Below are positions 42,264-54,292 of a stretch of 54,348 nt of DNA, piece by piece (within the stretch, counting starts at the first letter, position 1; each line of letters opens with the position of its first letter). The notes beneath the pieces were generated by a model, which did no database searches, was not told the DNA's origin, and was given only the letters and a program-made list of their open reading frames with translations. Origin of the DNA: Patescibacteria group bacterium (GTDB taxonomy: Bacteria > Patescibacteriota > Microgenomatia > UBA12405); contig JBBTXE010000001.1 of assembly GCA_038062455.1 (NCBI GenBank), forward strand, positions 316,371 to 370,718, read 5' to 3'. A program made the position numbers and the translations under genes.

Positions 42264-42335
42264 GGGTCCTTAGCTCAGCGGTAGAGCAGCTGCCTTTTAA
42301 GCAGTTGGTCGCGAGTCCGATCCTCGCAGGGCCCA
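42264..42335 (+). tRNA. tRNA-Lys(TTT)
   Basis: Acceptor GGGTCCT/AGGGCCC, anticodon loop ctTTTaa, T-arm GCGAG-TCCGATC-CTCGC. Confidence 0.92.
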
Positions 42336-42369
42336 CCGCGTCAAACGCGGCTTCGCCAGAAGACGAATT

Positions 42370-42472
42370 TGACCGAGTCGCGTTTGACGCGACCGAAATG
42401 AAACAAACTCAATATTATTTCTGACCGAGTCGCGTTTGACGCGACCGAAATGAAACAAACTCAATATTATTT
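42370..42472 (+). repeat. Tandem duplication of 51 bp (period 52) containing a hairpin and the GIY-YIG start codon
   Basis: TGACCGAGTCGCGTTTGACGCGACCGAAATGAAACAAACTCAATATTATTT at 42370-42420 and 42422-42472. Confidence 0.92.
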
Positions 42473-42737
42473 CGTGTACATTCTTTTTTGCTATGGAAAT
42501 GGTCATTTATACATCGGATTCTCATCAAACTACAAACAAAGATTGCTTAAACACCAACAGGGGAAAGTGACCTCAACTAGAAAAAGTTTACCTGTAGAAT
42601 TAATTTATCTCGAGGTGTTTAAAAATATTAAAGACGCTAAAAGTCGTGAGGTGTATTTAAAAAGCGGTAATGGCCGAAAACAACTAAAAGAAATGTTGAA
42701 GAACACTTTAATTGAAAAAAACTATAAATATTTATGA
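42450..42737 (+). CDS. Stand-alone GIY-YIG nuclease
   Basis: YFVYIL...HLYIGFS...RLLKHQQG...ELIYLE...AKSREVYLKSG. Confidence 0.9.
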   Translation: MKQTQYYFVYILFCYGNGHLYIGFSSNYKQRLLKHQQGKVTSTRKSLPVELIYLEVFKNIKDAKSREVYLKSGNGRKQLKEMLKNTLIEKNYKYL

Positions 42738-44445: not shown

Positions 44446-44454
44446 TGATAAAAT
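44446..44454 (+). promoter_or_regulatory. Extended -10 promoter (TGATAAAAT), probably the original tRNA-Glu promoter
   Basis: Ends 9 nt before the first tRNA 5'-like fragment at 44464. Confidence 0.5.
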
Positions 44455-44463
44455 ATCAGCCAC

Positions 44464-44824
44464 GGCTCCACCGTTGCCGACCTGGCTCCATCGTTGCCGG
44501 TTGCAGCAAAGCTGCACCGAGCATTCTCGGTCCGGCTAAAGCCGAGACCGGAACTAGTGGCTTAAGCAACATGCATTGCTGTTACATTCTTAAATCCTTC
44601 ACTGATAATTCGTATTATGTGGGGTCTACCAACAACTTAACCAATCGTCTCAATTTTTACAACCGGGGAAAATCCCGATATACCAAAAGAAAAATACCTT
44701 GGGTTTTGATATACTCAGAATGCTTTTCAACCCTATCTTTGGCAAGAAAAAGGGAATATCAATTAAAGTCTTGGAAGAATAGGGATTCATTGGAAAGATT
44801 AATCAAAAAATCTGGCTCCATCGT
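44464..44824 (+). mobile_element. Putative GIY-YIG cassette inserted in the 5' end of tRNA-Glu
   Basis: CTGGCTCCATCGT at 44482-44494 is identical to 44812-44824 (tRNA 5' end); hairpin cluster and nuclease gene lie between them. Confidence 0.6.
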
Positions 44825-44828
44825 CTAG
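44571..44828 (+). CDS. Stand-alone GIY-YIG nuclease
   Basis: CYILKS..DNSYYVGSTNNLTNRL...RYTK...WVLIYSE...ARKREYQLKSWK. Start ATG 44571; stop lies inside tRNA-Glu. Confidence 0.88.
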   Translation: MHCCYILKSFTDNSYYVGSTNNLTNRLNFYNRGKSRYTKRKIPWVLIYSECFSTLSLARKREYQLKSWKNRDSLERLIKKSGSIV

Positions 44829-44887
44829 TGGCCTAGGACACCTGGCTTTCATCCAGGTAATCGGGGGTTCGACTCCCCCTGGAGTCA
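44814..44887 (+). tRNA. tRNA-Glu(TTC)
   Basis: Acceptor GGCTCCA/TGGAGTC, anticodon arm CCTGG-ctTTCat-CCAGG, T-loop TTCGACT. Confidence 0.95.
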
Positions 44888-45012
44888 CACAGAGGGAATT
44901 CGCGTCAGGACAGGGTACGCGACGCCGCGTGAGTACGGCCGCGCGAAGCGTCGCAAACGGCTTTTTTAAATCGTCCTTCAAAAAAAATGAAAACGAAAAA
45001 TTTGAGTAACAT

Positions 45013-46371
45013 ATGAAAAAATTTATTATATATTGTAGAAAATCCACAGATGAGAAAGACAAGCAGGTTTTGTCGATCGAAGCCCAGATTACCGAACTTA
45101 CCGAATATGCCAAACGAGAACGACTCGAAATAGTTGAAGTCATCAACGAAGCCAAAACCGCCAAAGTCCCCGGCCGAGAAATATTTAACCAAGTCTTGTC
45201 CAAAATCGAATCAGGTCAGGCCAACGCCATTTTATCGTGGCATCCCGACCGATTGGCTCGTAATAGTATCGATGGTGGAAAAATTATCTACCTACTTGAT
45301 ACTGGCCATCTTGTCGACCTTAAATTTCCCTCTTTTTGGTTTGAAAATACACCACAAGGCAAATTTATGCTCTCGATAGCCTTTGGCCAGTCCAAATATT
45401 ATGTCGATAATTTATCCGAGAATGTTAAACGAGGCAATCGACAAAAAATCCGAAATGGCGTTTGGCCCAACAAAGCTCCCATTGGCTACGACAATGACAG
45501 GCTAACCAAAACTATCCACATCAATCCAGAAAAAGCTAAAGCTGTCAAAAAAGCCTTCGAAATGTTTATCGCTGGTCAAACATTTACCCAACTATCCCTA
45601 TTTATGGCCAAATACGGCATTACTCGAGGTAACGGTAAACCAAAGGCCATAAACCAAGTTCGCAGAATGTTGTGTAAAAAGTTTTACATCGGCATTCTTG
45701 ATTATGGCGGTGAGAAATCAAAAGGGATTCATAAATGTTTTATTGATCGAAAGCTTTTTGACAAGGCCCAAGAACGACTCGAATATTTAAATCATCCTCG
45801 ACCTCATGGCCATTATTTTGCTTTTTCTGGATTGATGAAATGTGGGGAGTGTGGTGCTTCGATAACTGCCGAGACAAAAACCAAACATTATCTTCGCACC
45901 AATCGCGACGCTACCTACACCTATTATCGCTGTACCAAAAAACTAAAACCTTGCTCCCAGCACTATATTAACGAGTCAAAGTTAGTTGACCAGGTGGCGC
46001 AGCAAGTTAGTCTCGCCTCACTCCCCACATCGTGGGTAAAACAATGGCAGCAATGGCTAGAACGAGACAGAGTAGCCGAGGAGCAATCTGGGCAACAAAA
46101 CCTGTTGTCTTTGGACAATGATATTCAAACAATTGATCTGAAAATGGGCAAACTACTTGACGCTTACCTTGACGACACCATTGAAGAAAGCATTTACAAG
46201 AACAAAAAGAATCAATTGTTTGAAGAAAAATTAAAAATGGAAGAGAAAAAAGCCAAAACAGAGGGTTGCGGTTCGAGTTGGCTCGAACCTTTTTCTGAAT
46301 TTATTATTGGCGCACAGAATGCGCCAAATCGCGCGCGCAAAAAAGAAAATTCCGCGAAGGCGGAATTATAG
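45013..46371 (+). CDS. Large serine recombinase, C-terminus probably disrupted
   Basis: YCRKS (catalytic Ser), DRLARN, recombinase domain (APIGY), Zn ribbon CGECG...YYRC...PC, coiled coil. Confidence 0.88.
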   Translation: MKKFIIYCRKSTDEKDKQVLSIEAQITELTEYAKRERLEIVEVINEAKTAKVPGREIFNQVLSKIESGQANAILSWHPDRLARNSIDGGKIIYLLDTGHLVDLKFPSFWFENTPQGKFMLSIAFGQSKYYVDNLSENVKRGNRQKIRNGVWPNKAPIGYDNDRLTKTIHINPEKAKAVKKAFEMFIAGQTFTQLSLFMAKYGITRGNGKPKAINQVRRMLCKKFYIGILDYGGEKSKGIHKCFIDRKLFDKAQERLEYLNHPRPHGHYFAFSGLMKCGECGASITAETKTKHYLRTNRDATYTYYRCTKKLKPCSQHYINESKLVDQVAQQVSLASLPTSWVKQWQQWLERDRVAEEQSGQQNLLSLDNDIQTIDLKMGKLLDAYLDDTIEESIYKNKKNQLFEEKLKMEEKKAKTEGCGSSWLEPFSEFIIGAQNAPNRARKKENSAKAEL

Positions 46372-46571: not shown

Positions 46572-46680
46572 TGGTGAACGTTTTTGAACAAATTCGAACG
46601 CATTTCAAAGATTCGTGCTAGCTCGCCTCGCCCTGCTCGGCTCGCACTCCAGCGCGGCGCCCCCACCCGACGCGCCTCCG
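46572..46680 (+). repeat. 109-bp inverted repeat, left arm
   Basis: Reverse complement of 47654-47762 with 2 mismatches by manual comparison. Confidence 0.92.
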
Positions 46681-46925: not shown

Positions 46926-47585
46926 ATGGAATCATTTCTTTTTGTTTTGGGAGCCTTATTCGTTGTAACGTTCGTAATACTGTATTTTTGGAGCGTTGTT
47001 TGGAGCTATAAGGATGCTTCAATTAGAGGTAAGAACGGTTTCGCGGTAGCGACTTTGGTTGCGCTGTTCGCATGGCCATTTGGTTTATTGTTTTGGACCA
47101 TCATTCGTCCTGAAAATGTTAAGCTAAAAGATAGCCCCTCGGCTATTAAAAAAAATACCCAACCTAACAAGTACATATCTGATTTTAAAGAAATGCCTTT
47201 TTTGTTAAAAATCCTTTTTCTAATTAGTGTATATTCATTCGTCACCACACTATTGAATTTTATTCAGATGAAACCTGTTGTCTTTGAGTATTTTAATACA
47301 GGATTTCCAAAAAACTTTCCTCTAATCTGGTATTCATACTACCTACTATTTAACATTTTTACGATAATAGTATATTTCAAACGATCTTATTCCGTTTTGA
47401 AAAAATATCTGTATGTAACTCTAGGCGTTTTAGTCGTTGCTTTACTTAACTCAATTTACTTCGTAATTAATCTTCCTGTAGAACAAAGATTTGCTACCAC
47501 CTTAGTGTATCTATTTACCTATATCTTTGGTGGTTTAATCTTCATATACCAACTCAAGCAAAAGAAGTATTTTAATCAAGCTTAA
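46926..47585 (+). CDS. Hypothetical polytopic membrane protein (cargo between the inverted repeats)
   Basis: About 6 hydrophobic segments; N-terminal W.YKDA..RG..G motif; own promoter and a 3' hairpin at 47612-47630. Confidence 0.75.
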   Translation: MESFLFVLGALFVVTFVILYFWSVVWSYKDASIRGKNGFAVATLVALFAWPFGLLFWTIIRPENVKLKDSPSAIKKNTQPNKYISDFKEMPFLLKILFLISVYSFVTTLLNFIQMKPVVFEYFNTGFPKNFPLIWYSYYLLFNIFTIIVYFKRSYSVLKKYLYVTLGVLVVALLNSIYFVINLPVEQRFATTLVYLFTYIFGGLIFIYQLKQKKYFNQA

Positions 47586-47653: not shown

Positions 47654-47762
47654 CGGAGGCGCGGCGGGTGGGGGCGCCGCGCTGGAGTGCGAGCCGAGCA
47701 GGGCGAAGCGAGCTAGCACGAATCTTTGAAATGCGTTCGAATTTGTTCAAAAACGTTCACCA
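47654..47762 (-). repeat. 109-bp inverted repeat, right arm
   Basis: Reverse complement of 46572-46680. Confidence 0.92.
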
Positions 47763-54001: not shown

Positions 54002-54292
54002 CTACATCAATATTTTTTCATACAAATCATTCCAATCTTTATTTTGCTTCTCAATCAACTCAATTTTCCAAATTCTTCTCCATTTTTTCAATTGTTTTTC
54101 TCTTTTAATTGCTTGATTTATATTGTTATGTTCTTCAAAGTAAACCAACCCATGAACACCATACTCTTTTGTAAATCCATCGATAATTTCATTTCTATGT
54201 TCAAATACTCTTCTTTTTAGGTCAGATGTCACTCCAATATACAATGTCCCATTTTTTCTACTTGCCATCATATATACAAAACAATTTTTCAT
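54002..54292 (-). CDS. Stand-alone GIY-YIG nuclease (REP-flanked type)
   Basis: FVYMMASRKNGTLYIGVTSDLKRRVFEH...GFTKEYGV..LVYFE...AIKREKQLKKWRR.WKIELIE..N..WNDLY. Confidence 0.93.
   Translation of the reverse strand: MKNCFVYMMASRKNGTLYIGVTSDLKRRVFEHRNEIIDGFTKEYGVHGLVYFEEHNNINQAIKREKQLKKWRRIWKIELIEKQNKDWNDLYEKILM

Follow-up and report, generated by a model that had tools for sequence, protein, structure and literature searches.

A GIY-YIG nuclease cassette between the promoter and the body of a bacterial tRNA-Glu gene: an insertion with possible homing-like spread

Introduction

How does the gene of a nuclease come to lie between the promoter and the body of a tRNA gene? This question is raised by a unit of about 350 bp, consisting of a hairpin module and the gene of an 85-residue GIY-YIG nuclease, which precedes the body of tRNA-Glu(UUC) in the genome of an ultra-small bacterium of the Patescibacteria group. 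The analysed stretch of 54,348 nt, henceforth the window, corresponds to positions 316371-370718 of contig C1 of this 665-kb, eight-contig genome (the source genome, G000); positions given below without a contig refer to the window. A preliminary description had interpreted the unit as an integrase-free cassette inserted into the 5' region of the tRNA gene with regeneration of the tRNA. Related genomes differ in whether this site is occupied, the architecture of the cassettes is conserved, nuclease lineages are linked to target tRNAs, and an intact tRNA is kept. We consider it on balance probable that the unit is a homing-like, nuclease-driven selfish cassette, which belongs to a family of very small elements residing inside tRNA genes and whose own lineage is specific for tRNA-Glu.

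Architecture of the locus

On the forward strand, positions 44446-44888 comprise, in this order, an extended -10 element, two copies of the tRNA 5' end, the hairpin module, a decayed copy of tRNA positions 12-28, the nuclease open reading frame (ORF) and the intact tRNA; all features listed in the preliminary description were found again where it had placed them. The -10 element TGATAAAAT (44446-44454, read from the sequence) fits the motif TGnTAnAAT and is predicted to belong to the native tRNA-Glu promoter. For want of a -35 box it was missed by a promoter consensus scan. The same motif is present 5' of the tRNA start in the cassette-free relatives G006, G008, G009 and G013, i.e. in the alleles with readable upstream sequence, as well as 5' of related cassettes wherever upstream sequence was available. 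It is followed by the displaced native 5' end of the tRNA gene, GGCTCCACCGT (tRNA positions 1-11 with position 8 mutated), which starts 9 nt past the -10 box, at the tRNA start site of G006 and G008. Together with the subsequent TGCCG and ACCT it forms a 20-nt partial copy of the left junction of the cassette (44464-44483, repeat families D3 and D5).

As stated in the preliminary description, the cassette is bracketed by an exact 13-nt direct repeat, CTGGCTCCATCGT. Its left copy (44482-44494, repeat family D3) consists of 2 nt of upstream sequence and GGCTCCATCGT, which equals tRNA positions 1-11 exactly, while its right copy (44812-44824, obtained from the repeat search) overlaps both the end of the ORF and positions 1-11 of the intact tRNA. 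A third copy, identical in 10 of 13 positions, is found at 44462, and GGCTCCACCGTTGCCG agrees with GGCTCCATCGTTGCCG in 15 of 16 positions. The chance expectation of an exact match to 11 tRNA bases within the approximately 330 nt upstream amounts to about 8e-5 (330 x 4^-11).

At the junction between tRNA positions 11 and 12 (11|12) the GC-rich double-hairpin module of 59 nt is inserted (44495-44553), which starts with TGCCGG and ends with CCGGAA. Its second hairpin (H2), taken together with the adjacent CTA (44522-44556), matches helix P12 of RNase P RNA in inverted orientation, to which we return below. The decayed copy of tRNA positions 12-28, CTAGTGGCTTAAGCAAC (44554-44570, repeat family D4), retains 14 of 17 bases; in relatives an AGGA within this copy constitutes a Shine-Dalgarno-like motif which is lost in the present cassette. 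The ORF (44571-44828) encodes 85 amino acids from its ATG and has no stop codon of its own, but reads through tRNA positions 1-12 and ends at the D-loop TAG formed by tRNA positions 13-15 (44826-44828). The tRNA itself (44814-44888; ARAGORN, Rfam tRNA model 61 bits) is intact and the sole gene found for this isoacceptor in the assembly.

Accordingly, about positions 1-28 of the tRNA are duplicated, with the insert 44495-44553 separating positions 11 and 12. The direct repeat can therefore not be read as a simple target duplication, since it is part of this longer duplication of about 28 nt, divided by a conserved hairpin module. A search for terminal inverted repeats bracketing 44475-44824 found none, so that the unit shows neither of the two hallmarks of a transposon, terminal inverted repeats and a short target-site duplication. 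Two successive insertion scars, as proposed for the two 5'-end copies, are plausible but unproven, as slippage or template switching explains them equally well; at a tRNA-Gln cassette (L025), the tRNA start and the left module end form a similar tandem array.

Comparison with cassette-free alleles

The locus was compared among 15 genomes of the genus in which tRNA-Glu(UUC) could be located, and in 11 of these congeners the tRNA is cassette-free, i.e. no GIY-YIG gene is present upstream. Empty sites in relatives, on which the preliminary description had made its reading depend together with tRNA 5' duplications at other GIY-YIG genes, do exist, and so do such duplications (see below). In the cassette-free G006 the junction reads TGATAAAATATCAGtCAC|GGCTCC, and its leader is that of 44446-44469, the promoter-leader agreeing in 18 of 19 positions. 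There, TGATAAAATATCAGTCAC lies immediately 5' of the tRNA; in G000 this leader is followed by the mutated first fragment, which identifies the sequence at 44464 as the native start of the tRNA. With the cassette located between native promoter and intact tRNA, and with the same leader in a cassette-free relative, the proposed insertion into the 5' region of a regenerated tRNA gene is well borne out.

The tRNA-Glu(UUC) of G013, which lacks the cassette, is 100% identical to that of G000, while the genes of the other congeners are 95% identical to it. G009 shares with G000 a neighbouring gene of 363 codons' product length (363 aa), and 108 nt lie between this gene and the tRNA. A reciprocal case is provided by tRNA-Glu(CUC), which is cassette-free in G000 and occupied in G003 behind the same 31-nt upstream flank with one mismatch; the G003 cassette is the sister of the G000 cassette with 77% protein identity. 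Clearly, the cassette is an insertion relative to congeneric species, present or absent at one and the same site like a free-standing homing endonuclease gene. Within the genus, 2 of 23 genomes carry a cassette of the Glu lineage.

As a separate observation, the tRNA-Glu(UUC) of G011 (L016, G011:C2 2635-2709) has the same neighbour genes on either side, but compared to 44814-44888 the tRNA gene, and it alone, has been turned onto the other strand.

Related tRNA-Glu cassettes and target specificity

The three best homologs of the nuclease among 60 relatives (77, 64 and 63% identity) are all encoded directly 5' of tRNA-Glu(CUC). Extending the comparison to 401 genomes of the same class reveals 11 with a match at E <= 1e-20, and 10 of these 11 matches are located directly 5' of tRNA-Glu (UUC or CUC), patchily distributed over at least eight host families. 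These cassettes follow one design: the extended -10 element, tRNA positions 1-11, a module beginning with T(G/C)CCG, comprising two hairpins and ending with GGGR, a stretch starting with CTAG that corresponds to tRNA positions 12 to about 20, the ATG and the ORF, the stop codon of which is in all cases a TAG within the intact tRNA.

In nine other tRNA-Glu cassettes the hairpin module is found at the same junctions (CGT|T[G/C]CCG ... GGGR|CTAG) with different stem sequences; in the tenth (G279) the leader is rearranged. Between the cassettes the stems change in sequence while pairing is kept, including compensatory change. As most related cassettes possess the module at the same junctions, it is part of the cassette unit and not filler. 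The leader of the G000 cassette folds with -49.1 kcal/mol (z = -3.6; none of 200 shuffled sequences was equally stable). Of the hairpins previously listed, TGCAGC/GCTGCA and CGGCT/AGCCG as well as the enclosing AGCCAC/GTGGCT recur in the computed fold, whereas ACCGAG/CTCGGT is an alternative pairing not contained in it. Scanning the leader region against Rfam yielded nothing significant except the tRNA itself, and no Rfam family exceeded the threshold in the other weak genomic matches to the leader (L012-L014). G-U pairs account for 0-4 of 22-41 pairs in the hairpins, which is too few to tell a role as RNA from one as DNA.

The displaced fragments flanking the module usually match the local tRNA; an exception is G101, with deviations at 4 of 11 positions. 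The displaced copy of G003 represents the genus-typical tRNA positions 1-27, while its functional counterpart diverges in an A2:U71 pair and in the T-arm. Since it is the functional tRNA of G003 which is the divergent copy, a foreign tRNA part appears to arrive with the cassette at least sometimes.

On a tree of 44 nuclease sequences, sampled by similarity to the Glu cassette, tRNA identity requires 15 changes compared to a mean of 22 and a minimum of 18 after label shuffling (0 of 500 shuffles reaching the observed value), and the side of the tRNA, 5' or 3', requires 5 changes compared to 11.4 (0 of 500). With few alignment columns and many unresolved forks this tree tests clustering, not topology. 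These counts indicate that the nuclease lineage tracks both the target tRNA and its side.

The nuclease

The nuclease ORF is the only gene of the cassette, which consequently lacks an integrase, in agreement with the preliminary description. Its product matches the Pfam family PF01541 (GIY-YIG) with E = 7.9e-18 and 65 bits (cut-off 22.6), residues 1-71 aligning with positions 1-74 of the 78-position profile. The closest solved structures are the UPF0213 proteins 1ZG2 (BH0048; E = 3e-5) and 1YWL (EF2693; E = 3e-4), followed by SLX1 (7CQ2, 4XLG; E = 0.006-0.05). With the catalytic domain covering the whole 85-residue protein, there is no separate DNA-binding module, and the protein has the single-domain format of the UPF0213/SLX1 type (about 85-110 residues, no second domain).

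Of the catalytic residues, Tyr5, Tyr16/Gly18, Arg26, Glu50 and Glu62 are present. The conserved set is incomplete solely at position 30, where the histidine of the RLxxH motif is exchanged for tyrosine; membership of the GIY-YIG fold family is not in doubt. Among 153 aligned sequences (152 homologs and the query) this residue is histidine in 151, and tyrosine occurs in the present protein only. The exchange of this nearly invariant residue supports the suspicion of decay raised in the preliminary description. A ratio of nonsynonymous to synonymous substitution rates (dN/dS) of 0.13 compared to the G003 homolog, determined with dS near saturation, indicates that the nuclease has been under selection for most of its history. 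The Tyr30 exchange is probably recent, and this copy of the nuclease has probably been lost or weakened in function by it, leaving the cassette as a resident relic.

With regard to the TAG that terminates the ORF we note a tRNA predicted by ARAGORN in a tRNA cluster of the source genome (C1:386510-386585, reverse strand), the anticodon of which is CTA (labelled Pyl). If this were an amber suppressor, the terminating TAG could be read through.

Cassettes at other tRNA genes and possibly in other phyla

The source genome harbours nine GIY-YIG paralogs, at least five of which adjoin tRNA genes on the same strand. In relatives, loci with the ORF preceding the tRNA contain an exact copy of the tRNA start of 11-24 nt, which precedes the ATG by 71-88 nt (Gln, Cys, Lys and Asn); further GIY-YIG genes with tRNA 5' duplications, for which the preliminary description had suggested to mine genomes, are thus at hand. 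At an Asp locus the longest exact copy begins at tRNA position 12. Where the tRNA precedes the ORF, an exact copy of 17-31 nt of the tRNA 3' part follows the ORF (Ile, Ala and Thr). Overall, exact tRNA-end duplications in relatives measure 10-33 nt, compared to matches of 6-8 nt at loci without them.

While a word-indexed search for homologs returned only 3 matches, an exhaustive search returned 5294. Among 67 homolog loci, limited to one genome per species, 36 adjoin a tRNA, invariably in the same orientation and in many cases with tRNA-end duplications of 20-33 nt. The closest of them stem from metagenome-assembled genomes (MAGs) labelled as Patescibacteria of the Microgenomates group, e.g. 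Daviesbacteria, Roizmanbacteria and Shapirobacteria, and the 67 loci include MAGs labelled Bacteroidota, Sphingobacteriia, Acidobacteriaceae (Acidobacteriota), Planctomycetia and groups of the Candidate Phyla Radiation. As MAG labels can be wrong, the apparent spread across phyla is provisional. At many loci a GC hairpin takes the place of the anticodon arm of the displaced pseudo-tRNA, while in the Glu lineage the module is located in the D-arm. In viral contigs one weak match was found (42% over 46 residues, in a giant-virus bin), which provides no evidence for a phage vector.

On contig C8 of the source genome (14880-15400, reverse strand) a GIY-YIG gene and an intact tRNA-Tyr lie between the two halves of a tRNA-like pseudogene. 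Their overlap, a direct repeat, measures about 37 nt (CGGTCTGTAACCCCGCAGC[A/G]GCGGGGCAACTCCTGC), and the cassette appears to have brought its own tRNA.

A probable homing-like mode of spread

In the homing-like reading that we favour, the old 5' part of the tRNA (positions 1-28) would have been left attached to the promoter and disabled by the hairpin module at 11|12, while the complete tRNA 3' of the nuclease gene would let the host keep its only tRNA-Glu(UUC). The promoter-less cassette would be transcribed from the tRNA promoter, making the nuclease message the 5' leader of the tRNA precursor, and the nuclease would be translated from this precursor with termination at the D-loop TAG. Cleavage by RNase P at tRNA position 1 would strip the message of its stop codon; therefore, one transcript could not give both a mature tRNA and a normally terminated message. 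Nuclease output would thereby be inversely coupled to tRNA maturation, which would keep nuclease levels low. The nuclease would then break a cassette-free tRNA-Glu gene, or act at a cognate hairpin, and an occupied allele would serve as repair template from which the cassette is copied, homology being provided by the tRNA sequence, by analogy with free-standing homing endonucleases and the mobile ORFs (mORFs) of fungi. For the hairpin module three functions may be envisaged: it may provide the nuclease with a cognate binding site, in the manner of the NTS for the GIY-YIG nuclease SsnA (PMC11893778), it may interrupt a 28-nt direct repeat which would otherwise delete the cassette, and it may destroy any target in the displaced copy.

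Several points weigh against this reading. We infer mobility, co-transcription, cleavage specificity and repair route from established knowledge and by analogy. The His30Tyr exchange suggests that the present copy cannot act now. A catalytic domain of 85 residues offers no DNA-binding domain to account for sequence specificity. Furthermore, the adjacent intact tRNA should keep any target that lies wholly inside the tRNA, which leaves self-immunity unexplained. The local match of the displaced fragments is not predicted by simple one-step homing from a foreign donor; it suggests either a local duplication followed by insertion of the hairpin or a spread mainly within species. No near-identical copies of the cassette were found at different sites. 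Finally, lgt is only 66-75% identical at the nucleotide level between G000 and the relatives, which are thus distinct species, so that gain or loss of the cassette did not take place recently and the insertion polymorphism is old.

Hairpin-guided transposition as an alternative

A rather unlikely alternative is a mini-transposon guided by its hairpin: the nuclease would recognise and cut its own hairpin as single-stranded DNA, comparable to SsnA with its NTS and to TnpA of IS200/IS605, the hairpin with or without the gene would be pasted into loops of structured-RNA genes, and staggered cuts or repair would give rise to the tRNA duplication. A precedent is found in SsnA, a single-domain GIY-YIG protein of 94 residues whose binding and cutting are restricted to the hairpin repeats on either side of its gene in single-stranded form (PMC11893778). 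Hairpins of the type TCCCGAT(N3-14)ATCGGGR are indeed dispersed, with 3 sites in G000, about 13 in G325 and about 8 in G318 compared to 0 for the reversed pattern, a control which leaves a general excess of palindromes uncorrected. In addition, nuclease clades differ in their hairpin families, and the match of both flanking tRNA fragments to the local tRNA fits a separate insertion of the hairpin. Against such a transposon stand the absence of terminal inverted repeats, the presence of hairpins on one side of the gene only, and the mere two copies of the H2 sequence in G000, one in the cassette and one in the RNase P RNA gene.

A hairpin of the dispersed type (TCCCGAT...ATCGGGA, G000 C8:11282-11299) is situated inside the 3' part of the 16S ribosomal RNA gene, in the area of helix 44, where it falls between the 1392 and 1492 primer site regions.

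The second H2 copy, a cassette hairpin copied without the nuclease gene, counts in favour of the transposon. Positions 44522-44556 agree in 33 of 35 bases, in inverted orientation, with C1:154761-154795 of the source genome, which lies within the RNase P RNA gene (C1:154638-154930, reverse strand) and which a covariance alignment assigns to helix P12. RNase P RNA as the source of the hairpin was considered and rejected, since P12 is absent (G009, G012), short (G003, G011) or unrelated (G008, G029, G033) in seven relatives, whereas related cassettes share a conserved hairpin. The flanks of the cassette consensus, CATCCTCG...GGGACTA, are retained in the RNase P copy, which is closer to them than the cassette of G000 itself and includes the CAT linker as well as the CTA of tRNA positions 12-14. 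Among the genomes compared, a patch of the cassette leader has thus been copied, inverted, into the P12 position in G000 only. In the simplest reading this happened by templated repair or a template switch at a hairpin-tolerant site; with linker and CTA included, the copy looks like a templated patch and not like the product of precise transposition. If this holds, such elements can remodel a ribozyme gene. As a consequence of the inverted copy, the tRNA-Glu precursor has a 5' leader whose sequence is complementary to a portion of its own processing enzyme, although we regard a functional importance of this complementarity as improbable.

Host function or recombinase origin as unlikely alternatives

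We think it very unlikely that the cassette is a fixed host operon, in which the tRNA-like hairpin leader would be a regulatory or processing RNA and the nuclease would serve the host, e.g. in repair at heavily transcribed tRNA genes. The conservation of the leader structure across host families with compensatory change, the purifying selection on the protein and the invariable location of the gene on the strand of the tRNA are consistent with this view. It does not, however, account for the patchy occurrence in 11 of 401 genomes of the class and in so few of the genus, for the empty sites in close relatives, for nine paralogs in a genome of this size, or for decayed tRNA fragments and the ORF-less relic of G007 and G020 described below, which are typical of selfish DNA.

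A gene for a large serine recombinase (45013-46371; Pfam Resolvase, Recombinase and Zn_ribbon_recom) starts 125 nt 3' of the tRNA. Its orthologs (92-94% amino acid identity) directly follow tRNA-Glu(UUC) in G007 and G020, both of which lack the nuclease gene. In these two genomes an ORF-less pseudo-tRNA-Glu is found 27 nt before the intact tRNA-Glu(UUC) (L077 in G007, L076 in G020). In the copy of G007, which has a 21-nt insert at 11|12 and is truncated within the T-loop, TCCGCCTAGGCGGA replaces the anticodon arm, while the copy of G020 is further deleted. Both resemble L108, a more distant Glu cassette in which a hairpin replaces the anticodon arm, and are probably what remains of a nuclease cassette. 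A holA-like gene directly follows the tRNA in G009 and G011; therefore, several kb have been inserted in G000. Because recombinase orthologs occur without the nuclease gene and nuclease cassettes without the recombinase, the two are separate elements at opposite ends of the same tRNA gene. The nuclease unit does not correspond to an integrase-borne tRNA island either, which would contain an integrase and duplicate the tRNA 3' end.

That the recombinase element (45013-46371 and beyond) produced the tRNA 5' duplication upon integration, with the nuclease as cargo or later arrival, is hardly credible and was rejected: the shared position of recombinase and pseudo-tRNA in G007 and G020 speaks for it, but no recombinase is found in the available flanks of the 10 other Glu cassette loci, recombinase-free genomes do carry the duplicated 5' fragment, the element abuts the 3' and not the 5' end of the tRNA, and the pseudo-tRNAs fit the second cassette design, that of L108.

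Behind the recombinase gene an inverted-repeat pair of 109 nt with 98% identity (46572-46680 and 47654-47762) surrounds an ORF of 219 amino acids (46926-47585), the product of which, judged by eye, looks like a membrane protein.

Relation to known systems

In the literature on GIY-YIG proteins with tRNA genes, Patescibacteria or UPF0213 we did not find a description of these cassettes; one paper merely lists a GIY-YIG gene among transferred genes. The cassettes combine features of phage Seg genes, fungal mORFs and Ssn nucleases. Seg proteins comprise about 200 or more residues including a DNA-binding domain, whereas the cassette protein is a bare catalytic domain of 85 residues. Seg genes are carried by phages, not by a bacterial chromosome, and involve neither splitting of a tRNA, nor duplication of a tRNA end, nor a hairpin module. 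What both have in common is a lone GIY-YIG gene beside tRNA genes and outside introns, present or absent at one locus and presumably copied upon a break; SegB, one of the free-standing GIY-YIG homing endonuclease genes of T-even phages, lies in the tRNA gene cluster of T4 (PMC13096335, PMC2988022).

Fungal mitochondrial mORFs supply a substitute for the native gene terminus, which is displaced, as in atp6 of Allomyces and in atp6, atp9, cox2 and nad3 of Glomus (PMC3630166). As in our cassette, an endonuclease ORF, which may lack its own stop or start codon and be in phase with the host gene, resides inside an essential gene, the duplicated end keeps the function and the displaced native end decays. 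In G000 this pattern of one intact and one decaying copy is seen in the mutated position 8 and in the 14 of 17 matches of the 12-28 copy. At least one relative, G003, has a functional copy of foreign appearance, while the tRNA of G000, identical to that of G013 and 95% identical to those of the other congeners, gives no such signal. In contrast to the cassette, which affects the 5' end of a bacterial tRNA gene, mORFs duplicate the 3' end of protein-coding mitochondrial genes and mostly encode LAGLIDADG enzymes of normal size; a hairpin plug is not described for them in PMC3630166.

With Ssn (SsnA/NTS, PMC11893778) the cassette shares, as judged from its description, a single GIY-YIG domain of about 90 residues, a linked GC-rich hairpin and dispersed hairpins of a related type, but H2 itself has only one other copy, in RNase P RNA. 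Ssn proteins belong to CDD cd10448; the best structural relatives of the cassette protein are UPF0213 proteins and SLX1. Ssn repeats occur on both sides of the gene, whereas the hairpins of the cassette are confined to its upstream side. The main text of the Ssn paper mentions tRNA not once, and the role proposed there is modulation of transformation, not self-mobilisation (PMC11893778). Elements with tyrosine or serine integrases that target tRNA genes likewise use the tRNA gene as landing site and regenerate it by partial duplication, but they encode an integrase, are kilobases long and usually duplicate the 3' end, whereas the cassette is integrase-free and located at the 5' end.

More tentatively, and with doubts prevailing, the cassettes may represent an undescribed class of minimal selfish elements present in several phyla: units of about 0.3-0.4 kb, made up of a bare GIY-YIG domain of about 85 residues and a cognate DNA hairpin. 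Each nuclease lineage would be adapted to a single tRNA gene and to one of its sides, an intact tRNA would in every case be left behind or supplied, and the hairpin could be pasted alone into other structured-RNA genes, in the present case into P12 of RNase P RNA. If so, it would be routine for single-copy tRNA genes of very small genomes to host selfish DNA other than introns and integrase-borne islands. A nuclease devoid of a DNA-binding domain would reach specificity at the level of a gene, perhaps via DNA shape or the cognate hairpin; this would bear on substrate recognition by SLX1-like and Ssn-like domains and could yield very compact programmable nucleases. Pseudo-tRNA fragments, ORFs running into tRNAs and possibly replaced tRNAs could then mislead both the annotation of tRNAs and phylogenies based on them.

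Additional observations

Two further GIY-YIG paralogs are located within the window. The first (42450-42737, within 42264-42737) lies downstream of tRNA-Lys(UUU), past a tandem duplication of 49 nt with GTCGCGT/ACGCGAC hairpins; in G011, lgt directly follows tRNA-Lys and thus presents an empty site for this paralog. The second (54002-54292, reverse strand) is flanked by the palindromes TTCCCGCG...CGCGGGAA next to a masked run of N. Elsewhere in the source genome, at C2:11958-12289, a D-arm-like and a T-arm-like tRNA match are found on one strand about 300 nt apart, which may constitute a tRNA with a long intron or a split tRNA.

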